A stretch of DNA of 64,000 nucleotides from an uncultured Bacteroidota bacterium (GTDB lineage Bacteria; Bacteroidota; Bacteroidia; JABEUT01), in assembly GCA_903863935.1 (NCBI GenBank), contig CAIPDV010000069.1, positions 19,322-83,321 of the forward strand, read 5' to 3'. Under the pieces are notes generated by a model. That model was not told the DNA's origin. It was given only the letters and a program-made list of their open reading frames with translations, and made no database searches. The translations under genes and the position numbers were made by a program. The stretch's first letter is position 1, and each line of letters begins with the position of its first letter. Positions 2,502-42,593 of the stretch are shown piece by piece.

Positions 2502-5246
2502 CTATTTCTGAATTACCACCTTGCCGCTGCCAAGTGTGTTTCCGCTTTCAGTTATTACCCTATAGAAATAAACCCCGTTAGGTTGATTGCTGATATTTAT
2601 TTCTTCACTCTTTGCTCTCAGTTCTTCGCTTTTAACTCTCTGCCCCAGTACATCATAAATTTCTACTGACAACTGTCCACTGGCAACTGACGACTGAATT
2701 GTGAAGGTGCCATTATTTGGGTTGGGGAAGATGGTGATGTTGCTGCTTCCGGTGGCTAGTTGATTAATACCTGTGCAATCCTCAACAAACAAGCTATCGG
2801 TAGCTGTTGCAGAACAGCCATTAGAATCGGTAAAGCTATAGTAAATAAAATTAAACGAATTAGTAACAGCGGAATCAGGATAAAAATGAGTTCCAACAAT
2901 TGCAAGACCTGTTAAAACTCCACCTGAAGGATAAGAATAAATGGAAATAACGCCATTGGAATTACAAACTGAATCACTTGAGCGATGCACAATAATCACA
3001 GTTGGTAATGGATTAACGTGAATAAGTGCACTATCTTTAGTCTTACACCCCACAAAATCAGATACAGTTATTAAGTATTTCGTGTCAATTTTAGGTGCTA
3101 CGGAAATTGAGGTGGTTGTTTTACCATTGCTCCAAAGATACTTATATGGAGAAATACCACCGGCTGAGTAATCATTCAAATAAATAGTATCACCTAAGCA
3201 AATAGACGTATATGGAATTGTATCTGTTAATCTTGAAGGCTGAGTAATAGTTACTGTTGCAAAACCTGCACATCCGTTATAATCAGTTATCGTTAAGGTA
3301 TAAGTTCCTGCTGTCAGCGCATTATCCGAAGCATTTGTTCCTCCTCCAGGACTCCAAAAATATTGATATGGGTTAGTACCCCCGCTAACTGATGAAGTTA
3401 TATAACCGGAATTATCTTCAAAACATTTTAAATTATGTGGATTTAAAGTAACGTTTAGTGCTGGTGGCTGTTTAATTGTATCAAAAAGAATTGATTTGCA
3501 ATTATTTGCATCATTAATAACTATTGTAAATGTGTTGGCAGAAAGATGTGTAAGACTTGAAGTAGTATTTCCATTGCTCCAGAGATAGGTGTATGGGGTT
3601 GCACCACCTGTAACTAAAATAATGGATGACCCATCATTCCCACCATAGCAACCAATATCGGTGTTCAGGATTATTATTGTTTTAGATGGAGGTTGTGTAA
3701 TTGTAACTTGTGTGGAGTCTATGCATCCGTTTTTGTCAGTAATATTTATAGTGTAAATTCCGGCAATTAATCCGGTGGCTAAAGCATTTGTTCCTCCTTT
3801 ACCAGTCCATTTATATGTGTAAGGAGTGGTTCCACCACTTAAGGTAACGTTTGCAATACCGACACTGTCTCCATAGCAAGACTCATTATTCAATACCGCC
3901 CCATTTAATAGTAGTGCCCCAGGTTGGGTAATAGTAACTGTTGCTGTACTTGCACAACTATATTTATCGGTAATACTTACTGTATAACTGCCTGCACTTA
4001 AATTGCTCGCGCTTACATTTGTTCCTGCTCCGCCGCTCCAGGTATAGTTATATGGGCCTGTTCCACCATTTAAAGTAACCATAATGCTTCCATTATTTTC
4101 TCCGTAACAAAAAATGCTTTGAACTACAGAAGCAGTTGCAGAAAAGCTACAGTTATATATTTCACGAATCCGATTGTTCAGCAAATCGTCAATAAATAGT
4201 CTCCCTAAACCATCCATAACTACTCCTGCAGGTTGATTAAGCTCGGCACTTGTAGCAGGCCCTCCATCACCGCTAAAACTGCCAAACCCAGTTCCGGCAA
4301 TTGTATTGATATTTCCCGATGTATTTACTTCCCGAACACAATTATTAGCAATGTCTGAAAAATATAAATTGCCAGTTGGATCAATAGAAATAAAAGAAGG
4401 TCCGTCTAGTTTCGCTGATTTAGCAGGTCCACCATCACCACTGTACCCCGCAATTCCATTACCAATAATAGTTGAAATAATACCTGATGTGGTTATCATC
4501 CTGACACGATTATTACCTCTATCACATATATATAAATTTCCGGCAGGATCCGTTGTAAGTCCAACCGGATAATCCAATTCAGCAGCTGAAGCAGCACCAC
4601 CATCTCCAGAATAACCAAATATATTCGGTTTACCGGCAAAAGTGGTTATAATACCACTTGTATTTACTTTTCGAATAATTGAATTTCCAAAGTCAGCTAT
4701 ATACACATTGCCAGATAAATCAACTGTTACACCTGCTGGAAGATTCAGATCGGCATTTGTTGCCTGTCCACCATCCCCACTGTACCCAGTAATATGTTCG
4801 CCAGCAAATGTTGAAATTATCCCGGAAGTAGTTACTTTACGTATAACGGCGTTATCCCGATCTGCTATATACATATTTCCGGAAGGATCAAATGCTATAT
4901 CAAGGGGGGTATGCAATTCGGCAGCTGAAGCCTGCCCCCCATTACCACTATATCCGGCAACTCCTGCCTTTCCTGCAATAGTGTATATAAGACCGGTAGT
5001 TGTATTAACCATGCTTATAATTTGAGATCCGGCTTCTGCGGAATAAATATTACCTGTTGCATCTGTATTCATACCGTCCGGTTCATTTAATTCGGCGGCA
5101 GTTGCTGGTCCGCCCATTCCACTGTATCCTGCCGGACCAATACCTGCAATTGTAGTTATAATTTGAGCCGCATTGTATGAGAAGAAACCAGAACAGAAAA
5201 TTAAAATCGATACTACCAGTAATTTATTTTTATTCATATACTTCAA
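2502..5246 (-). CDS. T9SS-secreted cell-surface protein: N-terminal NHL-repeat beta-propeller + SprB-type repeats + type-A Por C-terminal sorting domain
   Basis: Signal peptide. Repeated NHL-like units (GNIYIAD.., SGDGGQAT). At least four SprB-like repeats (CYG..G...V.GGT.PYTY.WS.G). C-terminal IFPNPNNGTFTI...VIQK tail typical of the Por_Secre_tail family. Confidence 0.6.
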   Translation of the reverse strand: MKYMNKNKLLVVSILIFCSGFFSYNAAQIITTIAGIGPAGYSGMGGPATAAELNEPDGMNTDATGNIYSAEAGSQIISMVNTTTGLIYTIAGKAGVAGYSGNGGQASAAELHTPLDIAFDPSGNMYIADRDNAVIRKVTTSGIISTFAGEHITGYSGDGGQATNADLNLPAGVTVDLSGNVYIADFGNSIIRKVNTSGIITTFAGKPNIFGYSGDGGAASAAELDYPVGLTTDPAGNLYICDRGNNRVRMITTSGIISTIIGNGIAGYSGDGGPAKSAKLDGPSFISIDPTGNLYFSDIANNCVREVNTSGNINTIAGTGFGSFSGDGGPATSAELNQPAGVVMDGLGRLFIDDLLNNRIREIYNCSFSATASVVQSIFCYGENNGSIMVTLNGGTGPYNYTWSGGAGTNVSASNLSAGSYTVSITDKYSCASTATVTITQPGALLLNGAVLNNESCYGDSVGIANVTLSGGTTPYTYKWTGKGGTNALATGLIAGIYTINITDKNGCIDSTQVTITQPPSKTIIILNTDIGCYGGNDGSSIILVTGGATPYTYLWSNGNTTSSLTHLSANTFTIVINDANNCKSILFDTIKQPPALNVTLNPHNLKCFEDNSGYITSSVSGGTNPYQYFWSPGGGTNASDNALTAGTYTLTITDYNGCAGFATVTITQPSRLTDTIPYTSICLGDTIYLNDYSAGGISPYKYLWSNGKTTTSISVAPKIDTKYLITVSDFVGCKTKDSALIHVNPLPTVIIVHRSSDSVCNSNGVISIYSYPSGGVLTGLAIVGTHFYPDSAVTNSFNFIYYSFTDSNGCSATATDSLFVEDCTGINQLATGSSNITIFPNPNNGTFTIQSSVASGQLSVEIYDVLGQRVKSEELRAKSEEINISNQPNGVYFYRVITESGNTLGSGKVVIQK

Positions 5247-5259
5247 AGATTCGATTTGG

Positions 5260-8200
5260 TCATTTCTGAATCACAAATTTTCGACTCGATTTTAATACCC
5301 CATTCCCATTCATTACCTGGCAAATATACACTCCGTTAGGCTGAGTGCTAAGGTCTATTTTTTTAGAAAAGCTATTCCCTGAAACAAAAAAATGAGAATC
5401 ATATATTTTTTGACCCAGCACATTATCTATTTCCAATGAAATTGTTCCATTTATTGATCCGGACTTTATATTGAAATTACCGTTATTTGGATTGGGGTAG
5501 ATCAACCAATCCCCTGCGACTCCGGCTAGTAGAGGTATTCCAGTGCAACTTTCTACATAAATACTGTCTGTAACCGATGCGGAACATCCGTTTGAATCTA
5601 TGTAGCTGTAGTAGATAAAATTAAATGCTCCGGTTTTAGCTGAATCCGGATAAAAATATTTCCCATGCACTGCATCCCCGCTTAATATCCCCCCCTTGGG
5701 ATTCATAAAAATGGTTATTACTCCCGCCCCGTTGCAAATTGTATCATTCGATTGAAGGATGAGAATTAATGAAGGTAGCGGATTTACTTTAATTATGGAA
5801 CTATCTTTTGTAAGACATCCGGTAGAATCTGTTACAGCAAGAATAAATTTGCTTGTATTTACCGGTGCAATGGAAATAAAATTATATGTTCCGCCTGTAC
5901 TCCACAAATAAGTGTAAGGGTTGAACCCGCCAGAACTATAATCAAATAACGTAACTGAATCACCAATGCAAACTGACGTTTTGGGAATGCTGTCCTTGAT
6001 TTTAGTGGGTTGAGTAATTGTAATAGCCGCAAAACCTGCACATCCATTATTATCGGTAATGTTAAGAGTATAAGTATTAGCTACCAGGTTACTATCTACG
6101 CTTCCTGTTGCTCCACCAGGTTTCCATAAGTATGTGTATGGCCCTGTACCTCCCGTAACTGTTGAACTAATATTTCCATTTTTATCTCCAAAGCAATGAA
6201 GATTGTGTACACTGTCTGCTATCTTTATTTCCTGGGGTTGGGTAATGGTGTCAGTTAAAATCAGAGTACAGTTATTTTTATCTTTTATAGTAATTGAATA
6301 AACTCCCCTGGATAGATTATTTACACTTAAAGTTGTATTGCCGTTGCTCCATAAATAGGTATATGGTGCCAACCCCCCGGAAACTATTGCATATGCCGAG
6401 CCATCGTTACCACCATAACATTGTACATTATTACTTGCAGTATAAACATTCATAACTGGGGCCTGCGTAATAACCACGGAAGCTGTTGAATTGCATCCGG
6501 AAGCATCCTTAATAGACACCGTATATGTGCCTGCACTAAGTCCACTGATATAAGAATTAGTACCATAACCCGCACTCCATAAATAAGTATAGGGTGCTAA
6601 ACCTCCTATTGTTGATATAAAGGCGTCAGCATTTGAATCTCTGTTACAAACAATATTGTTTATAACCGATATTGAAGCGACTAATGGGCTAATTTGGGCA
6701 ACGCTAAAAGTATCGGTAACTGCAAAATCACAATTGTGTGACACGGTTACAGTATAATTTCCTGCAATTAACCCGGTCACGGTTCTACTTGTAGCTCCAT
6801 TACTCCACGAATAAGAATATTGATTGGTATCCCAAAGGCATCCATTAATTGTTGCTGAAACTACAGCCCCGTCACAGTAATTGGTATGATTTTTATTAAC
6901 TGTTAAGCTGTAAATACTTGGTAAATTGAAACTGGAAATAAATTGATTACCGCAAACTATTAGTTTATTATTTATAGCAACACGAAGATCATAAATTTGA
7001 TTTGTGGCATTAATAACCGTTGTAATATTCAATCCCGTATCTAATACTTCCACTTTTGTGTTATTTGCTACGTAAATATTTTCACATAAATCTAAATCTA
7101 TTCCGCTCCAGTTCAAACTTGAGGCACCAATGTTTTTTGTAAATGTATTTACCCCAGTACTTTTATAATATCTCCGAAGGGTTTGTCCATCAAATAAATA
7201 GATCCATTTAGAACCTGCAACTTCACCATTCGGCGATGAACTATAACCTTGCTTTCCATCAATATAACTCAAATCGGGCAAGCCTTCGTAAAATGAAAAA
7301 CCATCAGATATAATATAATTAGTTGTCATGTAAGGCAATGTACATTTAACTAAAACATTATCGAAATCGGTTAAACTCGAATTGGTTTTCATAATTGCAG
7401 CATAAACGGCTGTATTGGAATTGTCAATTGCAAGAAGTGCAACATCATGTTGTGTTTCTCCACTGTGCAGAATATCAAATCCCTGAATAGAAGTAAAACT
7501 GGTATCTAGTAAGCAAATTTGGTTAGGATCTGCTGTTCCCCCGCCACCTATAACTAACTGTCCTATGCATTTACTATATGCTACTTTCCATAATTCTTCC
7601 ATAGGGTGTCCAATTGTGTAGGAATTTACCTGAATGCCATTAGAGTTTAATTTTAGGATAGTTGGTTCACCTGCACACCCCAAATAACTCGTACCACTTA
7701 CTTCATCTACGGCAAAGCTTCCGAACCCTGCAAGGGTATTCGGATAAATCGCATTAAAAATCCACTGAATATTTCCTGTACTGTCAAGTTTTATTTCTTG
7801 ATATGGGTTGAAACTACCATAAACATAAACATTGCCATGTAAATCGTAGTTTATATCATAACCCGCGTCATAACCCGTAAATAAAGGATTTACCGTCCAA
7901 GGGTCAATAACTAATGTTTTACTTTTATCATAAATACATAAAAACGATATTTCGTTTCCACTTTTTTGAAATGAGGCAGATACATTTTCATTGCTCTCTT
8001 TGTAAAAAACTTTTGTGGGCTTATGGTCAGTAAAATCGCCAAAGGAGCTTTGCAACTCGATATTACCGGAAGAATTAATTATACTATTATTTGCGTCTTT
8101 ATACAACAGTTTTACTTGTGATAGATTTGCACCCGGATGAATAATTACTGAGTACTCTAATCCCTTATCATTTGCAGGGAAGGAATATTCAATATCTATT

Positions 8201-8697
8201 CCATTATATATGTTTTTATACAGAATTTTTTTACACGCATGTGCAAAAACAGTATGGTTATTTCCAGCAGGATAGCAGTAATAGAACTTTACAGGGTCTT
8301 CTGATATTAATTCAACATTCGGATTTGCATTTTCCCATTCAACTGAAAAAAAATGTGTCTCCGGCTTATTTCTATCTGTATCTTTTCTTTCATCTTCATC
8401 TCCGGCAGGAGGAGGAAATTTATCATATCGGTAAGTAACTCCTTTAGGCGTAAAGTATACATCAACCCCTGTTATGCGTGTTGTGCATAATATTTTACCT
8501 TTTTCGGCAGGTATCTTTCCATCTAATTGTCCTTCATTATTCTCAATAAATACCTTCAGCTCAAATGGCTCGTTTACGGTCCATTTAGCTTGTGAAAGGC
8601 CATTTGCAGGTATAGTACTACTCTGTCCCATCACCTTAAAACAGGGGAATAATAAAATCAGAAAAATATAAAAAAAGTAATTTTTTACTATCTTCAT
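5260..8697 (-). CDS. T9SS-secreted large surface protein with SprB-type repeats and type-A C-terminal sorting domain; paralog of the downstream gene
   Basis: Signal peptide. The C-terminal ~500 aa are collinear and ~55% identical to 2502..5246 (CYGGNDGS..GG.APYTYLWSNGNTT.., ..NGCAGFA..TITQP..). C-terminal LIYPNPNNGNFNIKS..VIQK tail. Confidence 0.6.
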   Translation of the reverse strand: MKIVKNYFFYIFLILLFPCFKVMGQSSTIPANGLSQAKWTVNEPFELKVFIENNEGQLDGKIPAEKGKILCTTRITGVDVYFTPKGVTYRYDKFPPPAGDEDERKDTDRNKPETHFFSVEWENANPNVELISEDPVKFYYCYPAGNNHTVFAHACKKILYKNIYNGIDIEYSFPANDKGLEYSVIIHPGANLSQVKLLYKDANNSIINSSGNIELQSSFGDFTDHKPTKVFYKESNENVSASFQKSGNEISFLCIYDKSKTLVIDPWTVNPLFTGYDAGYDINYDLHGNVYVYGSFNPYQEIKLDSTGNIQWIFNAIYPNTLAGFGSFAVDEVSGTSYLGCAGEPTILKLNSNGIQVNSYTIGHPMEELWKVAYSKCIGQLVIGGGGTADPNQICLLDTSFTSIQGFDILHSGETQHDVALLAIDNSNTAVYAAIMKTNSSLTDFDNVLVKCTLPYMTTNYIISDGFSFYEGLPDLSYIDGKQGYSSSPNGEVAGSKWIYLFDGQTLRRYYKSTGVNTFTKNIGASSLNWSGIDLDLCENIYVANNTKVEVLDTGLNITTVINATNQIYDLRVAINNKLIVCGNQFISSFNLPSIYSLTVNKNHTNYCDGAVVSATINGCLWDTNQYSYSWSNGATSRTVTGLIAGNYTVTVSHNCDFAVTDTFSVAQISPLVASISVINNIVCNRDSNADAFISTIGGLAPYTYLWSAGYGTNSYISGLSAGTYTVSIKDASGCNSTASVVITQAPVMNVYTASNNVQCYGGNDGSAYAIVSGGLAPYTYLWSNGNTTLSVNNLSRGVYSITIKDKNNCTLILTDTITQPQEIKIADSVHNLHCFGDKNGNISSTVTGGTGPYTYLWKPGGATGSVDSNLVANTYTLNITDNNGCAGFAAITITQPTKIKDSIPKTSVCIGDSVTLFDYSSGGFNPYTYLWSTGGTYNFISIAPVNTSKFILAVTDSTGCLTKDSSIIKVNPLPSLILILQSNDTICNGAGVITIFMNPKGGILSGDAVHGKYFYPDSAKTGAFNFIYYSYIDSNGCSASVTDSIYVESCTGIPLLAGVAGDWLIYPNPNNGNFNIKSGSINGTISLEIDNVLGQKIYDSHFFVSGNSFSKKIDLSTQPNGVYICQVMNGNGVLKSSRKFVIQK

Positions 8698-10091: not shown

Positions 10092-10131
10092 TTCATAACT
10101 CATAGTTCATAGTTCTAAGCTCTTAGCTTAG
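10092..10131. repeat. Heptad tandem repeat array TTCATAAC TCATAGT TCATAGT TCTAAGC TCTTAGC in the nadD/mlaE divergent region, ~30 nt upstream of the nadD start
   Basis: Directly visible. Same repeat family as the three other arrays. Confidence 0.6.
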
Positions 10132-10274
10132 TGGCGGTAGTGCGAGTTATGTGTACTGAAATTAGGGCAGGTTCCGCAATGGTTCTTCCCCCGGAATATG
10201 AAGCATCCGGTAAGCAACTGCATGGAGGTTAATACGGTAATAAGGAGTAATACCCGTCTTGATTTCTTTGCCAT
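10128..10274 (-). CDS. Hypothetical 48-aa lipoprotein-like mini-protein (MAKKSRRVLLLITVLTSMQLLTGCFIFRGKNHCGTCPNFSTHNSHYRH)
   Basis: Hand-translated ORF below the 60-aa cutoff of the ORF track. Basic n-region, hydrophobic core, LTGC lipobox, Cys/His-rich tail. Sits in the 286-bp nadD/mlaE divergent intergenic region. Confidence 0.25.
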   Translation of the reverse strand: MAKKSRRVLLLITVLTSMQLLTGCFIFRGKNHCGTCPNFSTHNSHYRH

Positions 10275-20286: not shown

Positions 20287-21030
20287 ATGACACATACCTA
20301 CAAAATAACCGGAATGACTTGCAGTGGCTGTGAAGCCACCGTGAAAGGTAATTTACTGAAACTGTCCGAGGTTGAATCCGTAGAATTATCAAAGGATACA
20401 GGTATTGCGACTATAGGAATGAGCAAACATCTTTCAGTTTCCGATTTACAGAATGCAATTGGAATAAATAGTAAATATCATATTTCGGAAGATAGTAATC
20501 AGTCATCAGTTGTCAGTAGTCAGTCATCTACCGAGTATAGAAGTTGGTTAGCTACTTACAAACCCCTCATCATTCTGTTTAGTTTAATATTTAGTGTTTC
20601 ACTCATCGCATCTAAAAAGGCTGACGGAACTGTTGAATTTACAACCTGGATGCGGTATTTCATGGCAGGATTTTTTCTTTGCTTTTCATATTTCAAGCTC
20701 ATTAATGTAAAAGCTTTTGCCGATTCATTCAGTATGTATGACATTGTCGCTAAACGTATAAAAACCTGGGGATTTATGTACCCTTTTATGGAACTCGCTT
20801 TAGGTATTTTGTATGCAATGAATTTATACCCGCTATATACCAATATTGCAACCGTTGCCATTATGGGTGTAAGCAGCATCGGGGTAATACAAAGTGTTGC
20901 GAGCAAGAAAAAAATTCAATGTGCTTGCTTGGGTGCAGTGTTTAATTTGCCGATGAGTACTATTACCATTATAGAAGACTTATTAATGGTAGTAATGGCA
21001 GGTGGAATGATTTGGATGGAGTTGAAATAA
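20287..21030 (+). CDS. Heavy-metal-associated (HMA) domain fused to a MauE/DoxX-like membrane domain
   Basis: N-terminal GMTCSGCEATV metal-binding motif. C-terminal ~140 aa have four predicted TM helices with MauE-like features. Confidence 0.5.
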   Translation: MTHTYKITGMTCSGCEATVKGNLLKLSEVESVELSKDTGIATIGMSKHLSVSDLQNAIGINSKYHISEDSNQSSVVSSQSSTEYRSWLATYKPLIILFSLIFSVSLIASKKADGTVEFTTWMRYFMAGFFLCFSYFKLINVKAFADSFSMYDIVAKRIKTWGFMYPFMELALGILYAMNLYPLYTNIATVAIMGVSSIGVIQSVASKKKIQCACLGAVFNLPMSTITIIEDLLMVVMAGGMIWMELK

Positions 21031-24760: not shown

Positions 24761-25291
24761 GTGGCACAAATATCTAATAAACTAAAAGGCGGAGACCTGC
24801 GCTCCTTAGGCAAAACAAAAGTTGTTATTTCTGAAATAACCAATCAAAAGGAATTTGATGAGTTATTTAAAAACTTATTTAATCCCGACAGGCTAGTAGT
24901 TATGCGCGCTGCAGATGCGGTTGAGAAACTTACACAGACACATACGGATTATTTGGATTCGCATAAAAATGAACTTCTTGAATTATTTCAAACAGCCAAT
25001 CATATTGAATTAAAATGGCATCTCGCTCAATTAATACCTCGTTTGATTATTCGATTAAAGTTAAGCGAAGATGAAACTGGCATGGTTTGGGATAGGCTTA
25101 CACAATGGGCCCTGGATAAATCAGGCAGCAGAATTGTAAGAGTTAACTCTATGCAGGGCTTATATGATATTCAAAAGAAATTCCCTGAATTAAAAAAGGA
25201 TTTCACCGATACACTTTTAAAACTCGATAGGGAAACAATACCGAGTTTAGTAGCGCGAATTAAAATTCTAAGGAAGAAGATGAAATCTTAG
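24761..25291 (+). CDS. Hypothetical helical-repeat protein, possibly DNA-alkylation-repair (AlkD/HEAT-like) family
   Basis: ~176 aa, alpha-helical, weak resemblance to HEAT-like repeat proteins. Low confidence. Confidence 0.3.
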   Translation: MAQISNKLKGGDLRSLGKTKVVISEITNQKEFDELFKNLFNPDRLVVMRAADAVEKLTQTHTDYLDSHKNELLELFQTANHIELKWHLAQLIPRLIIRLKLSEDETGMVWDRLTQWALDKSGSRIVRVNSMQGLYDIQKKFPELKKDFTDTLLKLDRETIPSLVARIKILRKKMKS

Positions 25292-25321: not shown

Positions 25322-27148
25322 ATGAGAGTTGGGTTGTTTTTTTCTTTCTTTTTAATGCCTTTAATAGTGACGGCCCAAACTGTGATACCGCCGGATACAG
25401 CTCATTATTTTTCTATTTATAGTTTTAATTATTACATACCAGATGAATCAGAAACGCCAACTAGCATTGTTCCATCACCAGATGGCAACTCTAACATAGG
25501 TTTAACATTTCAGTCTGAAAGTATAAAAATTTGGCCTAATGTAAATGAGATTGGCCACAAACAATCCTATTTAAGTTTTGATAAATTGGCTTATGAGCAT
25601 TTAATGAAAGAAGCACCTGGAAGCTTTTCCATTTCCGATTTGGTATTCAATCCTCGGATAAAATCAATCAACCGAATCTCATGGAACAGAGAGCCATTGC
25701 TTTCTTTTTACTTGTGGTCGGATATGCATTTTGTGAATTCATTAACCGGTTATATGACTTGTTTTGGAAAATTATACAAAACCATTGATGCCGGGAATCA
25801 TTGGACCAGTTTATTGGATAGCAGTAAGGTAGTGGATAGAGTATTCTATGGTAAACGGAGCGTGTTTGCTGTTTTAACTAATCACGATTATGTTAAAATG
25901 GATGCCTATGGAATAATCCAAAAGATTGGAAGATTCAAATCGGGTAAACATGCTGACCAGATTGCTTCAATCCAATTTCAAAATGACAGTACTGCTTTTT
26001 TTCTTGTTGGAAATGGATTGAATGAAATAAAGTTTGCATTGTATAAATCGGTGAACGATATCATTCAACGGAAGCCACTGTTAAGGAACTTGCCCAACTA
26101 TACCAAAATGATTGTTACCGCAAAATCAATTATCATTTGGGAGAGAGGGAAAGTAATTTTTAAGTCAGATGATGGTGGAGAAACCTGGATTCAATATAGA
26201 GTTTTAGATGCCTCAACCCCTTCCATTCCACAAGTCAACTTAAAGGGATTGTTTGTTGCTCATGACAGCATTATAATGGGATTTGGCTTTTCATATCAAC
26301 CTTATGATGCCTATTTCAGCACCGGCAAAGTGTTGTTTGACCAACATCTCGATTCAGTGGAAACCATCAGCTATAAAAGAAGATTAGAAACGTTTAACAA
26401 AACGGAGAAAGTGAAACACGATTCTCTTACCTATTGCAAGTGCAGGGACTATGCATCTACAATACAAAATCACCGCCAGATTGAAAATGGAACATATATT
26501 CAAACCCAATTGACCTACTTGTTTGACAAGGCTCCGGATATTATCTTAAAGGATGGTAAATTTTGGTATAATCCCAGAGGATTTAACAAAAAGCAAACAG
26601 CCCAAAATGAATCGATGCCTGAAACAAAAGGCGATTATGTTGCATCTGAGAATTCAATTACATTTACCACCAACGAGAAGAATAATTATTTCAACGCTAC
26701 CTATTATTATATGTTCGATGGAAATAATTTTTCTATTTATAAGTGTGATTTGAAAAAGGGACAGACCAACTTAATTCAATTCCATGATTTCGGTAAGGAG
26801 AATGTTTATTATCCACCCGTACCAATAGCTGAATCAGTGGATGAGCATTTTCCTCACGCTTCAGATTATCTCTATTCGTTTACTTCAGACACCAATAAAT
26901 TTATCATAACCTTAACGGATATGTCAGGCAGGGCAATCAATGATGCCTCCATAAAATTTGATGATATATATGCGACACTAGTTTTCGATGGGCAATATTA
27001 TTTTGATAAACGTACGTTGAAAGAGTTTAACCCATTAACAAGTAAACCAACACTGATAGTCATTTCACACCCCGATTACGATCCACTGGTGATAAGCTAC
27101 CCAACTGTAGTTAAGAAATATATTCTACAAAAGAAAAAGAAGAAATGA
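25322..27148 (+). CDS. Hypothetical secreted protein (608 aa)
   Basis: Signal peptide (MRVGLFFSFFLMPLIVTAQT). No recognisable catalytic motifs. Its stop lies 3 bp from the stop of convergent bioD. Confidence 0.4.
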   Translation: MRVGLFFSFFLMPLIVTAQTVIPPDTAHYFSIYSFNYYIPDESETPTSIVPSPDGNSNIGLTFQSESIKIWPNVNEIGHKQSYLSFDKLAYEHLMKEAPGSFSISDLVFNPRIKSINRISWNREPLLSFYLWSDMHFVNSLTGYMTCFGKLYKTIDAGNHWTSLLDSSKVVDRVFYGKRSVFAVLTNHDYVKMDAYGIIQKIGRFKSGKHADQIASIQFQNDSTAFFLVGNGLNEIKFALYKSVNDIIQRKPLLRNLPNYTKMIVTAKSIIIWERGKVIFKSDDGGETWIQYRVLDASTPSIPQVNLKGLFVAHDSIIMGFGFSYQPYDAYFSTGKVLFDQHLDSVETISYKRRLETFNKTEKVKHDSLTYCKCRDYASTIQNHRQIENGTYIQTQLTYLFDKAPDIILKDGKFWYNPRGFNKKQTAQNESMPETKGDYVASENSITFTTNEKNNYFNATYYYMFDGNNFSIYKCDLKKGQTNLIQFHDFGKENVYYPPVPIAESVDEHFPHASDYLYSFTSDTNKFIITLTDMSGRAINDASIKFDDIYATLVFDGQYYFDKRTLKEFNPLTSKPTLIVISHPDYDPLVISYPTVVKKYILQKKKKK

Positions 27149-31827: not shown

Positions 31828-32898
31828 TTATTTGGATGGTTTATAACCGGATTCCTTGTATATTTTGTCTGCACTTTTCATCGCCATCAATTGGGGTAGT
31901 GTAACATCCGGGTTATTTTTCATGTAGGTTCTTACAATCTGCCAGCCAATCCAGAAGCCAGTTCTGGAAGGGGCTAGATCATGATTGAATATGGATGTGA
32001 ACGGCCCGTCTTTCATCAGTTTACCAGTGCTAGCCTGGTCGGTAGAGTACAACAGTTTTTCGCGGATAATGTAAGCCCACATATTGAATTCATTGTCTTT
32101 GCACCACTCCAGCTGTTTTTTTGTATAACGTATCTTAATCGTGTCATTTACTTTGGGTAACATGGCATCCACTGAATACATGATTTTTCCTTCGTGTATT
32201 ATTTCCGCCAAAAGGTCATTCTTATCTTCATTCGGTTTGAAAACACTTTCTATCCAACCATACACTGCATCACTAAGCATGTAATCTTTGGTCATGAATT
32301 GAGCCTTATACCTAGGAATCTGAGCGTAAGTGTAAAGCATGTTATTCCGGCCAAGGTAACGTTCCAATGAAATTCCGAGAGTCGAATCGTAATAAATAAT
32401 TCCATAATCATACCCGCTCATAACAGTAACTACATTGGGTAGTATGTTATTCGGGTAGTAATAGTGATAATGCCTGAAAGCTTCTGTCAAACCATCCTCC
32501 AGAAATCCTACATCAGGATACATTTTTTCGCACGTATCATAGGTATCACGCATATCACGGTCGGTAATAAATCGTCTCAGTCCGGCGGCATAGGTAGAGT
32601 CCATTATGCCTCCATTATTGAGGAATGCTGTAACAAAGTCGGTATAAAAGATTCCGTATTTTTTTTGCATCCTCCGGGTATATTGATTAACGCTGTCTTT
32701 TGGCATTGCAAATATGTCACGTTCCATTCTGCCAATTTTTACCTGCGGAACAATAACTTTTGAAACATCAATATCCAGCGGATTACGATGACAGGATGCA
32801 AAGAAAAAAATTAATACAAATAACCCCAAACCCCTAAAGGGGCTTTTAATAGCACTATTTAAAGCCCCTTTAGGGGTTTGGGGTTGAAATGAATTCAT
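31828..32898 (-). CDS. gldB: Gliding-motility lipoprotein GldB-like
   Basis: Lipobox FFFASC. Downstream region KIGRMERDIFAMPKDS...YTRRMQKKYGIFYTDFV resembles the GldB N-terminal region. Start is ambiguous. The ATG overlaps the pcrA stop (TAATG), but a 64-bp palindrome + T-tract lies inside the first 25 codons. An internal TTG at ~32829 is the alternative start. Confidence 0.5.
   Translation of the reverse strand: MNSFQPQTPKGALNSAIKSPFRGLGLFVLIFFFASCHRNPLDIDVSKVIVPQVKIGRMERDIFAMPKDSVNQYTRRMQKKYGIFYTDFVTAFLNNGGIMDSTYAAGLRRFITDRDMRDTYDTCEKMYPDVGFLEDGLTEAFRHYHYYYPNNILPNVVTVMSGYDYGIIYYDSTLGISLERYLGRNNMLYTYAQIPRYKAQFMTKDYMLSDAVYGWIESVFKPNEDKNDLLAEIIHEGKIMYSVDAMLPKVNDTIKIRYTKKQLEWCKDNEFNMWAYIIREKLLYSTDQASTGKLMKDGPFTSIFNHDLAPSRTGFWIGWQIVRTYMKNNPDVTLPQLMAMKSADKIYKESGYKPSK
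32822..32885. repeat. 64-bp perfect palindrome (25-bp arms AACCCCAAACCCCTAAAGGGGCTTT / AAAGCCCCTTTAGGGGTTTGGGGTT, 14-nt loop) at the pcrA/gldB junction; likely pcrA terminator or an in-frame palindromic insertion
   Basis: Read directly from the sequence. A T-rich tract follows on the minus strand. Each arm also contains a cccc-taaa-gggg mini-hairpin. Confidence 0.6.
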
Positions 32899-35213
32899 TA
32901 TCCAACAATTTTCAATTTAGCAAACTTTAGCAGCAATTGTTTTTTATCTCCGTTGCCGAACATAACCGTTGCTTTACTGTTCGGATAAGAACCTTCTATA
33001 GTTAAAACTTCGCCCTGGCCGAATCGTTCATGTTCAACCCGGTTACCAACTTTCAGTCCGCTTAAATGCGAATTGTCCATTGGTAAAGAAGTTTGAGCAG
33101 CTTTGTTCATGCTCATTAATTTTTTCCCAACAATTGTTGGTGGCGGGGATTTAATAGCTGTTTGTGCAGGTTTTCGGAATGCTGAAGGAGTTCTGGAATA
33201 GACATGTTCACTGGCTTCTTCCCTGAAAGAAACATTGGTAAGGCATTCTGCAGGAATTTCTTCCAGGAAACGGCTTGGCTCGTTGCTTTGAGGGCTTCCA
33301 TAGCGGAAACGATAGATGGCATTCGAAAGTATAAGTTGCTTTTTTGCACGCGTAACGGCAACATAAAAGAGTCTGCGTTCCTCTTCTAACTCCTCCCTTG
33401 AATTCAGTACCATTTGCGATGGAAAAAGATTTTCTTCCATTCCTGCTATATACACGTAATTAAACTCCAGCCCTTTTGCAGCATGGATTGTCATAAGAAG
33501 AACCTTATCACTTTTAGATTTATCTTCTTTGGTCCTATCTTCATTTGTAAGCAGAGCCACATCTTCCATAAACATGCTAAGGCTTGGAATAACGCCTTCA
33601 TCCAATGGTTTCTCCGAAAAGTCTTTCAGTCCGTTGAATAATCCAAGAATGTTTTCGATCCGGTTAACCCCTTCCGGAGTGCGATCCTGTTCCAGTTCGC
33701 GTTTTAGTCCTGTAGTAGCGTAAATATATTCACCCATCTGGTATGCAGTAGATGTGGAAGCCATTGCAGCAAAGCTTTTGATCATATTTACAAACTCGGC
33801 AATCCTTTCGGTAACACGGGGAGAAAGCCCAAGATTAAAATCTTTTATGTTATCCATTACCATCCAAATGCTGATATCATTATCAGCAGCAGCCACAATC
33901 ATTTTATCGAATGTAGTATCGCCAATTTCACGTTTCGGATAGTTGATAACCCTTCTCAAAGCCTCTTCGTCATGTTGATTGATAGCTAAACGGAAATAGG
34001 CCAGCAAGTCCTTAATTTCCTTACGCTGATAGAATGAAAGTCCGCCATAAATACGGTAAGGGATATTGAGTTTTATCAACGCCTCCTCAATGGAACGTGA
34101 TTGTGCATTGGTTCGGTATAGTATTGCAAACTCACTATTGGCAGCTTGTTTGGTAGCTTTGAAATTAAAAATAGATTGAGCTATAACTCTTCCTTCGTCA
34201 GTATCGCGTTCAGCACGCATCAGCTGGATCTTTTCGCCTTCACCGTTTGATGTCCAAACGGTTTTTTGCAACTGGTCACGGTTTTTAGAGATAACTAAAT
34301 TGGCAGCGTGTACCAGAGTTTTGGTAGAACGGTAATTCTGTTCCAGTTTAAAAACCTGGGTATCGGGGTAGTGCTTCTGGAAGTTTAAAATGTTCTGAAT
34401 ATTCGCTCCGCGGAAGGCATAAATACTTTGTGCATCATCACCCACAACAGCTATGTTTTGGTGGCGTGCAGCAAGCTGGCGCAGAATCATATACTGTGAA
34501 AAGTTGGTATCCTGGTATTCATCCACCAATATGTAACGGAACATGTCCTGGTATTTTAACAGCACTTCAGGATGATCACGGAGCAACATATTTGTCTGGA
34601 ACAAAAGGTCGTCAAAATCCATGGCACCGGCTTTGAAAAGCCTTTTATTGTAGGTGAGAAAAATATGTGCGAAATGCTCCCTGCGGGCTGCCCTGTCATC
34701 ACTCATATATTGTGCATCGTTCACATATGCTTCTGCTGAAATGAGCATGTTTTTCATACTCGAAATACGACCCAATATGGTTGATGCCTTGTAGGTAGAA
34801 TCATTCAATCCTAATTCCTTGGTAATACTTTTTATCAAGCCCTTGGAATCATCCGTATCGTAAATGGTAAAGTTCTGAGGGTATCCTATTTTTTCAGCTT
34901 CTTTGCGCAATAAGCGTGCAAATACCGAGTGAAAAGTACCCATCCAGAGATTACGGGCATCGCCACCAATAAGCTCAATGATACGCTCTTTCATTTCGGC
35001 GGCGGCCTTATTTGTAAAGGTTAGCGAAAGCACCCTGAAAGGATCAACACCTTGTTTAAGCAGGTAGGCAATCCGATAGGTAAGCACCCTTGTTTTGCCT
35101 GAACCGGCACCTGCAATAATCATTACAGGGCCTTCGGTGGCTTCTACCGCTTTGCGTTGTTCCTCGTTAAGTTCATCTAAAAAATTATCTATCCTCGATT
35201 CCATAGCTTGCAA
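32898..35213 (-). CDS. UvrD/PcrA/Rep-family ATP-dependent DNA helicase
   Basis: Walker A GAGSGKT near the N-terminus. Helicase motifs DEYQDTN, VGDDAQSIYAFRGA, and a C-terminal motif VI region (VTRAK). Confidence 0.8.
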   Translation of the reverse strand: MQAMESRIDNFLDELNEEQRKAVEATEGPVMIIAGAGSGKTRVLTYRIAYLLKQGVDPFRVLSLTFTNKAAAEMKERIIELIGGDARNLWMGTFHSVFARLLRKEAEKIGYPQNFTIYDTDDSKGLIKSITKELGLNDSTYKASTILGRISSMKNMLISAEAYVNDAQYMSDDRAARREHFAHIFLTYNKRLFKAGAMDFDDLLFQTNMLLRDHPEVLLKYQDMFRYILVDEYQDTNFSQYMILRQLAARHQNIAVVGDDAQSIYAFRGANIQNILNFQKHYPDTQVFKLEQNYRSTKTLVHAANLVISKNRDQLQKTVWTSNGEGEKIQLMRAERDTDEGRVIAQSIFNFKATKQAANSEFAILYRTNAQSRSIEEALIKLNIPYRIYGGLSFYQRKEIKDLLAYFRLAINQHDEEALRRVINYPKREIGDTTFDKMIVAAADNDISIWMVMDNIKDFNLGLSPRVTERIAEFVNMIKSFAAMASTSTAYQMGEYIYATTGLKRELEQDRTPEGVNRIENILGLFNGLKDFSEKPLDEGVIPSLSMFMEDVALLTNEDRTKEDKSKSDKVLLMTIHAAKGLEFNYVYIAGMEENLFPSQMVLNSREELEEERRLFYVAVTRAKKQLILSNAIYRFRYGSPQSNEPSRFLEEIPAECLTNVSFREEASEHVYSRTPSAFRKPAQTAIKSPPPTIVGKKLMSMNKAAQTSLPMDNSHLSGLKVGNRVEHERFGQGEVLTIEGSYPNSKATVMFGNGDKKQLLLKFAKLKIVG

Positions 35214-35413
35214 AGTTACTCCTATTGGGTCAGACCATAAGCCCTGTTAATAATTTTTGAAAAGAGTTTATTCTGATCTTGTACACTTATTCAGTAAATA
35301 TTGGCATATGCTGTAACAAAACCGTGAATCATGTAATTTTCATAGACACAAATATAACACGGAATGAGTGGCCTCTGGCGACTTTTGTAACGAACAAATT
35401 AATTCCCTACAAA

Positions 35414-35587
35414 ATGAAAAAACTAATATTTATGCTATGCTTATTTGTTGCAGTATCAATGCAAAGTTGTGTAGCTTATGTTCACCCGATGGGTGATGGA
35501 AGAGGGCGTGGAGGAGAACATCATGATGAAGGACACCATGATAATGGACATCATGAAGGGAATGAACATCATGATGATCATCATTGA
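35414..35587 (+). CDS. Small His-rich lipoprotein (57 aa): MKKLIFMLCLFVAVSMQSCVAYVHPMGDGRGRGGEHHDEGHHDNGHHEGNEHHDDHH
   Basis: Lipoprotein signal with SC lipobox, RGRGG motif, then a 30-residue tail that is >40% His with acidic residues. The ORF track gives a longer frame (35279..35587); the internal ATG fits a signal peptide. Confidence 0.4.
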   Translation: MKKLIFMLCLFVAVSMQSCVAYVHPMGDGRGRGGEHHDEGHHDNGHHEGNEHHDDHH

Positions 35588-35660
35588 AAGTGCACATAAG
35601 TAGATTCCCATATCCGTTAATAATTGTAAGAGGTTAAATAATAAATAAAATAAAATCAGT

Positions 35661-35780
35661 ATGAAAAGGTTACTTCTTGGGCTATGCCTATTATCAATGC
35701 TTTCAATGGAAGGTTGTTTTGTAAGAGGGCGGGGATGGCATGAACATCACGGCGGCGGAGGCCATCATGAAAGGCACTAG
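35661..35780 (+). CDS. Second small His-rich lipoprotein (39 aa): MKRLLLGLCLLSMLSMEGCFVRGRGWHEHHGGGGHHERH
   Basis: Hand-translated, below the ORF-track cutoff. Same architecture (signal + Cys lipobox + RGRG + His-rich tail) as the adjacent gene. Confidence 0.35.
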   Translation: MKRLLLGLCLLSMLSMEGCFVRGRGWHEHHGGGGHHERH

Positions 35781-35786
35781 GATTTT

Positions 35787-36887
35787 TTAGCTGGCGGTTT
35801 TCTGAACCCTCCATTGATGGAGTACAAAAATGGTAGAGGCAAAAAGCAGAAATGCTCCAGTTTGATGTAGCACGCCAAGTACAACCGGCACAGTGTAAAC
35901 AAGTGTAAATACGCCTAAAAAGAATTGCACCAACACCATACCAATAAGAAATTTAATACCGTGAGATTGGGTTGGTAAAAGTTGAAGTTTTAATGATTTG
36001 AACCAAATAACTATTACCAGCAAAACAACCAGATATGCATTGTAGCGATGTATAAATTGAACACCAACAAGACCATCTATAAAGTTGCGCCAGATTGGGG
36101 AGATGGCTGTAACCTCCGGAGCAATCCAGTTTTCGCCCATTTTAGGCCAGGTGGGATAAACCTGTCCTGCATGGAGGCCTGAGGTAAAGGCTCCATAAAC
36201 AATTTGTATTACCACAAGTATCAACAATGCCCAATTCCATTTTCGTACTATTTCGAATTTTCTATGGACTACCTGAAGGGTCATAGTGCTTTTATCTGTT
36301 ACCGGATACATTAAATCAAGTGCCACCCAAAAGCTATACCCAAATGTGATGAACGCAGTTATTAAATGTGCGGCCAAAAAATAATGACTTACGTGAGGCA
36401 CATCCTGCAACCCGCTCGCCACCATATACCAGCCAATTATACCCTGTACTCCTCCCAAGGCAAATATGATGAGTGTTTTCCATATTAAAGAACCTTTCAA
36501 CCAACCTTTAATTATAAAAAACGCAAATGGAATAAGAAATACCATCCCAATAGAACGACCAATTAGACGGTGAATAAACTCCCACCAATAGATATGTTTG
36601 TAATCTTCTAAGGTAAAGTTGCTGTTTACTTGCTTGTATTCGGGAGTTTGTTTGTAATCATTGAAGTCTGAATTCCATTCTTCATCGGTATGCGGAGGAA
36701 TAACGCTCGATATTTTCCACTTAGCCATGGAGAGGCCGGAGTGGGTAAGGCGGGTAATTCCGCCAACTACAACCATTCCCCATATTAGCAGGCAACCTGC
36801 CAATAGCCATATTATAATAGGTTTGGAATGATTCATGGGTATAATTTTATGCAAATGTAAAGAAAGAAGAAATGTTAAGAATGACAA
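35787..36887 (-). CDS. Heme A synthase (CtaA/COX15-like) integral membrane protein
   Basis: Eight predicted TM helices with conserved His residues in helix pairs (HRLIG, HLITA). Typical size. Confidence 0.5.
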   Translation of the reverse strand: MSFLTFLLSLHLHKIIPMNHSKPIIIWLLAGCLLIWGMVVVGGITRLTHSGLSMAKWKISSVIPPHTDEEWNSDFNDYKQTPEYKQVNSNFTLEDYKHIYWWEFIHRLIGRSIGMVFLIPFAFFIIKGWLKGSLIWKTLIIFALGGVQGIIGWYMVASGLQDVPHVSHYFLAAHLITAFITFGYSFWVALDLMYPVTDKSTMTLQVVHRKFEIVRKWNWALLILVVIQIVYGAFTSGLHAGQVYPTWPKMGENWIAPEVTAISPIWRNFIDGLVGVQFIHRYNAYLVVLLVIVIWFKSLKLQLLPTQSHGIKFLIGMVLVQFFLGVFTLVYTVPVVLGVLHQTGAFLLFASTIFVLHQWRVQKTAS

Positions 36888-42001: not shown

Positions 42002-42277
42002 TTGAAAAACATTAGTTCTATGCAGCCAACGATTCAAAGCAATAAATCTGTTTTGCCAAGATTAGAAAGGCAAAAAAATACCCTTGCAAAAAAGGTTCTT
42101 TCTATAAAAGACGAGGAAACTATAGCATTATTATCATCTTATTTCCAAGACTTAGTTTCTACCAAACGGATTACCAAAGCACAATACAATAGAGAATTAG
42201 ATGCAGCGGAAAAGGCCGTGAATGAAGGAGAATTTGTTACCAATGAACAGGTAATGAAAGAAATGAAAAAATGGTAA
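42002..42277 (+). CDS. Putative type II antitoxin
   Basis: Small helical protein immediately upstream of, and 1 bp from, a RelE/ParE-like toxin gene. Function assigned by position. Confidence 0.4.
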   Translation: MKNISSMQPTIQSNKSVLPRLERQKNTLAKKVLSIKDEETIALLSSYFQDLVSTKRITKAQYNRELDAAEKAVNEGEFVTNEQVMKEMKKW

Positions 42278-42278
42278 G

Positions 42279-42593
42279 GTGATTAAAGCTAAAAAGAGGC
42301 TAAAAGTTGTTTGGCATATAAATGCCCAAAATCATCTGAAAGAACTTATTGAGCATTTGTCTGAGAGATATTCTCTAAAATTTATTGAGTTGATCAAAGG
42401 TGAGATTGAAAGGAACACCAAATTAATCAGCCTTCGGCCAAGGATATTTCCTTTGGATATTTTGAAATCAAATAATGACGGAAGCTACCGCTACTTTAAT
42501 GTTCCCGCCATAAGGATCGCATATAAAATAGAGCCTAAACGAATAATAATACTTCGGGTGCGGCATCAAAGCCAAGAGCCGCTGGCATACTAA
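42279..42593 (+). CDS. RelE/ParE-family type II toxin
   Basis: ~104 aa. N-terminal KVVWHINAQNHLKELIEHL and C-terminal IRIAYKIEPKRIIILRVRHQSQ match the ParE/RelE fold pattern. Confidence 0.55.
   Translation: MIKAKKRLKVVWHINAQNHLKELIEHLSERYSLKFIELIKGEIERNTKLISLRPRIFPLDILKSNNDGSYRYFNVPAIRIAYKIEPKRIIILRVRHQSQEPLAY

Follow-up and report, generated by a model that had tools for sequence, protein, structure and literature searches.

In Hpn and Hpn-like proteins, in the tails of UreE, HypB and SlyD and in the loop of ZnuA, Ni or Zn is stored or passed on by runs or pairs of His with intervening Asp, Glu and Gly, and clustered His pairs combined with carboxylates form the classic set of ligands for Zn, Ni, Cu and Co. 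Here we describe two adjacent small genes, open reading frames 1 and 2 (ORF1 and ORF2, together the mini-genes), which code for predicted lipoproteins with His-rich tails and are located in a 64,000-nucleotide (nt) stretch of contig CAIPDV010000069.1 from an uncultured Bacteroidota bacterium. This stretch is called the window, and all coordinates refer to it unless another locus is named. Hpn, UreE, HypB, SlyD and ZnuA differ from the mini-gene products in that they are cytoplasmic or present loops in folded domains, without a signal peptide or lipid anchor. SmbP of Nitrosomonas europaea, a protein located in the periplasm with many His and acidic residues, binds Cu, Mn, Zn and Ni (Barney et al. 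2004, as cited in PMC10893511). According to the account given there, SmbP resembles the mini-gene products in being small and exported and in its short repeats of His and acidic residues; it lacks an enzymatic domain and is able to bind several divalent metals. In the same account it is a soluble, folded and unlipidated protein of ~10 kDa, whereas the peptides described here have 21-39 residues and are predicted to be lipid-anchored and disordered. No sequence family linking SmbP to the mini-genes was found in Pfam, NCBIfam or PDB. The lipoprotein Hrl (MG_149) of Mycoplasma genitalium, which is regulated by metal and Fur, has been implicated in the acquisition of nickel (PMC6968530) and is thus a precedent for metal handling by a lipoprotein with a His-rich region. 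Hrl is set beside the mini-genes by its description; it has ~32 kDa, belongs to a wall-less Gram-positive lineage and is paired with an energy-coupling factor (ECF) transporter regulon, whereas the mini-genes are stand-alone genes with products ten-fold smaller. New is the combination of known kinds, His-rich metal binders and mini-lipoproteins, in lipopeptides of 20-50 residues that form an unnamed, widespread class.

A sequence-only reading of this DNA had proposed two plus-strand ORFs of 57 and 39 amino acids (aa) between the start of a helicase gene and the end of a heme A synthase gene. Coordinates and translations were reproduced, and the Pfam-annotated neighbours bear out the placement. 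The locus consists of the following features:

35414-35587, plus strand: ORF1, 57 aa, MKKLIFMLCLFVAVSMQSCVAYVHPMGDGRGRGGEHHDEGHHDNGHHEGNEHHDDHH
35414-35467, plus strand: predicted signal peptide of ORF1, residues 1-18
35468-35470, plus strand: Cys19 of the ORF1 lipobox SMQS-C, which passes a PROSITE-type lipobox rule
35468-35584, plus strand: predicted mature peptide of ORF1, 39 aa
35516-35584, plus strand: ORF1 tail repeat, ~4 units of 15 nt encoding (G/E)-H-H-(D/E)-x and ending in DDHH
35588-35660, plus strand: A/T-rich spacer between ORF1 and ORF2, 73 nt, no terminator-like hairpin
35661-35780, plus strand: ORF2, 39 aa, MKRLLLGLCLLSMLSMEGCFVRGRGWHEHHGGGGHHERH
35715-35717, plus strand: Cys19 of ORF2, following the leader (residues 1-18) with the atypical lipobox SMEG-C
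35715-35777, plus strand: predicted mature peptide of ORF2, 21 aa, CFVRGRGWHEHHGGGGHHERH
32898-35204, minus strand: UvrD/PcrA-type helicase gene (PF00580 and PF13361; 768 aa as called on L046), divergent neighbour, context only
35787-36836, minus strand: COX15/CtaA heme A synthase gene, ctaA (PF02628, E = 3e-98; 349 aa as called on L046), convergent neighbour, context only

The gap between the helicase start and the ctaA stop is 582 nt long and houses both mini-genes. That these are a duplicated pair, as proposed earlier, is visible in the DNA: the 16-nt stretch coding for RGRG is 88% identical between ORF1 and ORF2 and the tail DNA of both is ~70% identical; they are therefore paralogues. The RGRG motif itself occurs in both ORFs, as described before, but is not conserved in their orthologues. 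Proteins of such size are systematically missed and ORF2 is an example, as had been pointed out: on three contigs with an identical ORF2 it was left out by the gene callers, and its exact sequence is missing from a collection of 15 billion proteins. A protein identical to ORF1 is present on 8-10 contigs.

Syntenic loci were fetched from uncultured Bacteroidota genomes with CtaA as the anchor. Mini-genes were found as follows:

L001, same place and same relative strand: one ORF1-type gene
L002, same place and same relative strand: one ORF2-type gene
L003, same place and same relative strand: one ORF1-type gene
L004, same place and same relative strand: three mini-genes, including a third subtype, CFVEVHGHRWHRYHDVR, at L004 3128-3235, minus strand
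L050, L051 and L052, same place: mini-genes, located via protein look-ups
L052 1070-1373: an ORF2-type gene ahead of an ORF1-type gene, thus in reversed order, with a 37-nt spacer

Altogether, ORF2 has orthologues in L002, L004, L050 and L052. Related genomes carry one to three copies in varying order and some are without any; in L005-L007, which belong to the same clade, there is no mini-gene between ctaA and the helicase gene. ORF1 and ORF2 belong to a small array with birth-and-death turnover, in which copies are gained and lost.

Relatives retain the frame, the start context AAAATGAAAAA and Cys19, which is invariant. For the first 26 codons of ORF1-type genes, the pooled ratio of non-synonymous to synonymous differences per site (pN/pS) is 0.31 and the pairwise omega ~0.2; between L003 and L004 these codons show 10 synonymous changes and 1 non-synonymous change. 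Comparison of ORF2 with L002 gave a pS of 0.82 and a pN of 0.22, and with L050 an omega of 0.27. In the tails, whose H/D/E/G content is maintained and where CAT/CAC and GAT/GAC exchange freely, synonymous sites are saturated (pS ~0.95) and pN is ~0.12, a value biased downwards because these low-complexity tails were aligned by protein similarity. Tail length differences between orthologues are whole codons. Judged by these codon comparisons, both genes were shown to be under purifying selection. An ORF with both a lipobox-like leader and a tail of at least 30% His never arose in 100 simulated versions of the window with matched dinucleotides; for lipobox-like small ORFs of any kind, 3 were observed in the window and 0.15 were expected from the same simulations. 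With the frame conserved in relatives, purifying selection acting on it and no such ORF in the simulations, both ORFs are very probably genuine genes, in agreement with the sequence-only reading.

Both proteins begin with an n-region MK(K/R) followed by an uncharged hydrophobic core (MKK-LIFMLCLFVAV in ORF1, MKR-LLLGLCLLSML in ORF2). The lipobox was assessed with a PROSITE PS51257-type rule, which asks for K/R within the first 7 residues and for [LIVMFWSTAG](2)-[LIVMFYSTAGCQ]-[AGS]-C with the Cys at position 15-35. The rule is passed by ORF1 (SMQS-C, Cys19) and by 82 of the 89 members of the wider family described below. ORF2 has SMEG-C, with a Glu at position -2 that is outside the PS51257 residue class and unique among the 89 members; its orthologues have TMQG-C or TMQS-C. 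The proposed lipoprotein signal with a Cys lipobox thus stands for ORF1, and ORF2 departs from it at position -2. In an AlphaFold2 model of ORF1, residues 2-22 form a helix and coil follows, with a confidence score (pLDDT) of 54-61. In 69 of 83 family members, V, Y, F or I occupies position +2. Surface lipoproteins of Bacteroidetes carry an export signal, K-(D/E)2 or Q-A-(D/E)2, just past the +1 Cys (PMC5080379). This signal is missing from the mature N-termini CVAYVHP and CFVRGRG, which have no acidic cluster at positions +2 to +5. Given this missing signal and the hydrophobic residue at position +2, the peptides are expected on the periplasm-facing leaflet, and we infer lipidation and this location for both of them from the leader features.

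Past the Cys, ORF1 has 38 residues, among them 11 His and 9 Asp or Glu, and ORF2 has 20 residues with 6 His. The repeat in the ORF1 tail was delimited with Tandem Repeats Finder (TRF) and the direct-repeat families D1 and D2; its pentapeptide shows the high content of His and acidic residues in short repeats that is found in the His-rich metal-binding class. The tails are predicted to be intrinsically disordered. A long-range inverted repeat that flanks the ORF1 tail (35475-35485 and 35590-35600) is not visibly conserved in L001 and was judged to be due to chance.

No Pfam family matches ORF1 or ORF2 at E <= 1, and searches of NCBIfam, PDB sequences and Rfam returned no family match for the mini-genes, so that the earlier statement that they are not a standard annotated family holds. 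The best NCBIfam models (NF038104, PG1828 NF050142 and CigR NF040487) reach E = 0.05-0.66 and 10-14 bits, compared with cut-offs of 50-78 bits; all such sub-threshold hits are to the leader or to low-complexity sequence, that to PG1828 being confined to the leader (residues 1-19) and that to CigR running over residues 7-52. A literature search on small His-rich lipoprotein families brought up nothing but the Mycoplasma Hrl and papers on metal homeostasis in general. With a single sequence as query only four close relatives were retrieved. A profile search of 1.84 billion representatives yielded 64 representative clusters (50% identity level) at E <= 1e-3, 12 of which have E <= 1e-10, and a wider profile yielded 134 clusters, including cultured enterobacteria and Mucilaginibacter. 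Nearly all of these proteins are 38-80 aa long (longest 96 aa) and they share one architecture: a signal peptide, an invariant lipobox Cys and a His/Asp/Gly/Arg tail. The mature part has 20-49 residues (median 30), the tails consist of 24% H, 16% D, 15% G, 11% R and 8% E, and a C-terminal DHH is present in 22 of 83 members. Members occur in Bacteroidota, including Mucilaginibacter, and the named hosts also include Klebsiella michiganensis, K. oxytoca, K. grimontii, Raoultella, Brenneria, Erwinia, Collimonas, Paraburkholderia, Roseateles and Pseudomonas; cultured carriers are found in Klebsiella, Raoultella, Brenneria, Collimonas and Mucilaginibacter. All of these proteins are annotated as "hypothetical protein" or merely as "Lipoprotein". 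Because the similarity rests on signal peptide and composition, common descent beyond the Bacteroidota clade is unproven, and the wider set is an architectural class.

The Klebsiella and Raoultella members are lipoproteins of 40-42 aa with up to eight consecutive His (for example ...SGCIVDPGYHHQHHHHHHDNRDWR in Klebsiella michiganensis; L059-L061 7001-7126). The tail of a metagenomic member (P0067) is (GWHGD)x4 followed by DHH. This tail and the ORF2-type tails (HGGGGH, GWH) are reminiscent of the Cu(II)-binding HGGGW unit of the prion octarepeat.

The region upstream of ORF1 contains a series of conserved blocks:

35324-35337, plus strand: conserved block GTGAATCATGTAAT, consensus GTGAAT[GC]AT[GA][CT]AAC, a candidate regulator site or distal promoter element
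35353-35358, plus strand: TATAAC block (alignment A3), 21 nt (start to start) past the TGTAAT of the first block, a possible direct-repeat half-site or -33 region
35380-35387, plus strand: GACTTTTG, agrees with the Bacteroidetes -7 element at 7 of 8 positions and lies ~27 nt ahead of the ATG
35392-35397, plus strand: GAACAA, conserved and followed by the A-rich start context

The consensus of the Bacteroidetes -7 promoter element is TAnnTTTG. Eight orthologous upstream regions share one block order, namely GTGAAT[GC]AT[GA][CT]AAC, after ~15 nt TATAAC, after ~21 nt nAnTTTTG, then GAACAA and the start context. In L050 the blocks remain beside the mini-gene although three genes separate it from the helicase gene, and they therefore belong to the mini-gene. 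RNAalifold found zero consensus pairs in the eight regions and Rfam gave no match; the upstream conservation therefore acts at the DNA level, and a riboswitch or leader RNA was rejected on the RNAalifold result. The region is a probable promoter plus regulator site as judged from these alignments. Transcription would start from the promoter-like region ~30-90 nt upstream of ORF1, and the non-canonical -7 box together with the conserved distal blocks suggests that it may depend on a regulator. A regulon of the upstream motif within the window was considered and rejected: the distal block has a single exact site there, and matches with one mismatch occur at chance level.

ORF2 is either co-transcribed with ORF1 or served by a weak promoter of its own. 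The element GTTAATAATT occurs at 35246 and again at 35616, and the ORF2-type gene of L004 has its own copy of the promoter architecture. No terminator-like hairpin was found after ORF1 or ORF2. The stops of ORF2 and ctaA are convergent and 6 nt apart (35778-35789), and 10-13 nt apart in relatives. Because the stops are so close and no terminator-like hairpin follows, the transcripts of mini-gene and ctaA must overlap at their 3' ends, which may leave room for antisense interference.

Each gene would give rise to a pre-lipoprotein of ~18 leader residues followed by a Cys. Once exported by the Sec pathway, lipidated at Cys19 and cleaved by signal peptidase II, the product would be a lipopeptide of 39 (ORF1) or 21 residues (ORF2), whose tail, predicted to be disordered, presents pairs of His separated by Asp, Glu, Gly or Asn and which would remain on the periplasm-facing membrane leaflet. 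There, clusters of imidazole and carboxylate groups could reversibly bind Zn, Ni, Cu and Co at multiple sites; we roughly estimate a capacity of ~3-4 ions for ORF1 and 1-2 ions for ORF2. Metal binding is the most natural reading of the His/Asp/Glu composition, and from this composition we infer it. Taken as a whole chain, a membrane-tethered metal sponge or relay of low specificity is the function we lean towards, with a confidence slightly above even. Envelope metal homeostasis is known mostly from soluble periplasmic proteins and transporters; if metal binding is true, the mini-genes would add a very cheap lipid-tethered component to it. Look-alikes in tractable bacteria (Klebsiella michiganensis, K. 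oxytoca, Raoultella, Brenneria and Mucilaginibacter) make the hypothesis directly testable.

Several observations weigh against the sponge or relay. The Pfam scan of window genes, which covers ~0.6-49 kb, found a single metal-related domain, 15 kb away:

20287-21030, plus strand: heavy-metal-associated (HMA) domain fused to a MauE/DoxX-like membrane domain

No metal transporter, metallochaperone or metal regulator gene lies next to the mini-genes in the window, and the sampled contexts elsewhere have no adjacent metal transporter, metallochaperone, metal regulator or oxidase gene. Outside the window, the nearest metal-related gene is CsoR/RcnR-like and lies 5 kb off on one proteobacterial contig. 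No Fur- or Zur-like palindrome was recognised upstream. The Glu at position -2 may make processing of ORF2 poor or different, the likeness of the members outside Bacteroidota could be convergent, and the tail pN carries the downward bias mentioned above. Finally, heme binding, proton buffering and membrane interaction are also within the capacity of His-rich peptides.

The proximity to heme A synthase, a cytochrome oxidase biogenesis gene, had been taken to suggest periplasmic metal buffering or a metallochaperone role. This argument is not supported. Mini-genes and ctaA cannot be co-transcribed because ctaA lies on the opposite strand and is convergent. Wherever a mini-gene abuts ctaA, CtaA is 75-88% identical to that of the window, so that all these loci form one clade, and no mini-gene is found at ctaA in L008 and L009 (CtaA ~60% identical). 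The gene of a close relative, P0014 (L049), is located between pentose-phosphate genes and a GH94 gene. More distant members occupy seven further unrelated neighbourhoods; in Klebsiella and Raoultella the mini-gene sits between yoaK-yoaJ and a DUF2534 gene, which a LysE-family gene follows, and in Mucilaginibacter it adjoins a GH16 gene. Ten differently placed contexts and ~40 annotated window genes revealed no recurring partner. The window is of housekeeping character, with genes for GldB, KsgA, an acyl-CoA dehydrogenase, biotin synthesis, Maf, a UbiA-family prenyltransferase, acyl carrier protein (ACP), ketoacyl-ACP synthase II (KAS II) and a ParE toxin; the scanned genes include no cox, sco or PCuAC gene. 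As far as gene order can tell, the adjacency within the clade would most simply reflect shared ancestry and inherited gene order rather than a functional link. The heme A synthase case illustrates that an inference from neighbours can be a relic of shared ancestry.

An extended form of the metal-binding proposal sees the peptides as widespread "natural lipid-anchored His-tags", ranging from freshwater Bacteroidota to Klebsiella, that form a tunable periplasmic metal-buffering layer and are coupled, in this clade, to heme A synthase or to the maturation of aa3 oxidase. The coupling would consist in the hand-over of Cu or heme or in convergent-transcript interference at the 6-13-nt tail-to-tail junction. 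We regard this extended form as unlikely. Quite improbable is also a role of the peptides in the biogenesis of heme A or of cytochrome aa3 oxidase, such as delivery of Cu or heme to the oxidase in the periplasm. Such a role would fit the distance of only 6-13 nt between the mini-gene and the ctaA stop in the window, L001-L004, L050, L051 and L052, the persistence of this adjacency despite differing genes on the far side of ctaA and three helicase-side gene insertions in L050, and the likeness of the ORF2-type and P0067 tails to the prion Cu(II) unit. It is disfavoured by the convergent orientation, hence the lack of a shared transcript, by the restriction of the adjacency to one clade in which L005-L007 lack it, as do L008 and L009, by the placement of P0014 and of the seven contexts in other lineages without oxidase genes, and by the lack of cox, sco and PCuAC genes in the scanned part of the window.

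Entericidins A and B (ecnAB) are encoded by two adjacent paralogous genes for lipoproteins of ~40-50 aa, and a small lipoprotein of this family is described in PMC7296081. The tandem pair of ~40-57-aa lipoproteins resembles ecnA/ecnB, the mini-genes are likewise stand-alone genes, their copy number is variable, and the pKa of His is near physiological pH, so that membrane-active mini-lipoproteins of the entericidin or type I toxin kind, toxin plus antidote, which would mainly perturb or stabilise membranes and use the His tail as a pH switch might be considered. We think this unlikely. The tails of entericidins are amphipathic and not His-rich and their role is that of toxin and antidote, whereas the mini-genes have no PF08085 match even at E <= 1 and their products no amphipathic or hydrophobic segment beyond 3-6 residues past the Cys, the tails being acidic or zwitterionic and predicted coil. 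Many relatives are single-copy, which disfavours an obligate toxin-antidote pair.

Another explanation, to which we give little credence, is that the peptides modulate an envelope sensor or buffer protons and pH at the membrane surface rather than store metal. NlpE and RcsF are examples of small lipoproteins that communicate with sensor kinases, the upstream conservation points to regulated expression, and the composition of the tails would buffer near pH 6-7. There is no two-component system adjacent to the mini-genes in the window, however, and the tails vary so extremely in length (20-49 mature residues) and sequence that a specific protein-protein interface is disfavoured.

Very small peptides that pass through the lipoprotein pathway are also known as precursors of lipidated, post-translationally modified peptides (DAG-RiPPs), which have been described with lipoprotein signal peptides in Bacteroidota and other phyla (PMC13056109). 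It is highly improbable that the mini-genes code for such precursors: DAG-RiPPs need adjacent MNIO-type maturases and Cys-containing cores, whereas here the Pfam-annotated neighbours within ~10 kb are all housekeeping genes, with no MNIO/DUF692, radical SAM, YcaO or other maturase gene among those scanned (two ORFs in this range, 24761-25291 and 25322-27148, are without any Pfam match), there is no core Cys apart from the lipobox Cys, and a radical SAM gene is nearby in only 1 of ~10 contexts.

Hardly credible and already largely refuted is the view that the ORFs are no genes at all, only chance frames in (CAT/GAT)n-like low-complexity DNA or a histidine-sensing leader peptide: the repeat does leave several frames open on both strands and ORF2 was never called as a gene, but purifying selection and saturated synonymous change act on this frame, leader and Cys are conserved in relatives, the simulations yield no such ORFs, and a His leader or attenuator disagrees with the convergent next gene, the lack of a same-strand gene downstream and the lack of a terminator, Rfam match or consensus structure.

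Some further observations were made at the neighbouring genes and elsewhere. The helicase gene probably starts with the ATG at 35204 (768 aa, L046 call) rather than with the TTG at 35213. At 6 nt upstream of the helicase start (35202-35218, minus strand) there is a -7 box of the Bacteroidetes type without mismatch, TAACTTTG, which suggests that the helicase mRNA is nearly leaderless. In one metagenomic context (L065 5001-6466), the mini-gene is followed after 156 nt by the start of a radical SAM gene on the same strand; it is the sole context of this kind. Another small lipobox ORF of the window (10128-10274, minus strand; 48 aa, MAKKSRRVLLLITVLTSMQLLTGCFIFRGKNHCGTCPNFSTHNSHYRH) contains CxxC, is without a Pfam match and points away from a divergent MlaE permease gene. 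The gene for the ParE-family toxin (42279-42593, plus strand) is preceded by a 91-aa ORF without a Pfam match; the two (42002-42593) probably form a type II toxin-antitoxin pair. At 2502-8697 (minus strand), two large cargo proteins of type IX secretion are encoded, which carry SprB repeats and Por_Secre_tail sorting domains, and, together with GldB at 31828-32898, they indicate that the genome is that of a gliding member of the Bacteroidota.

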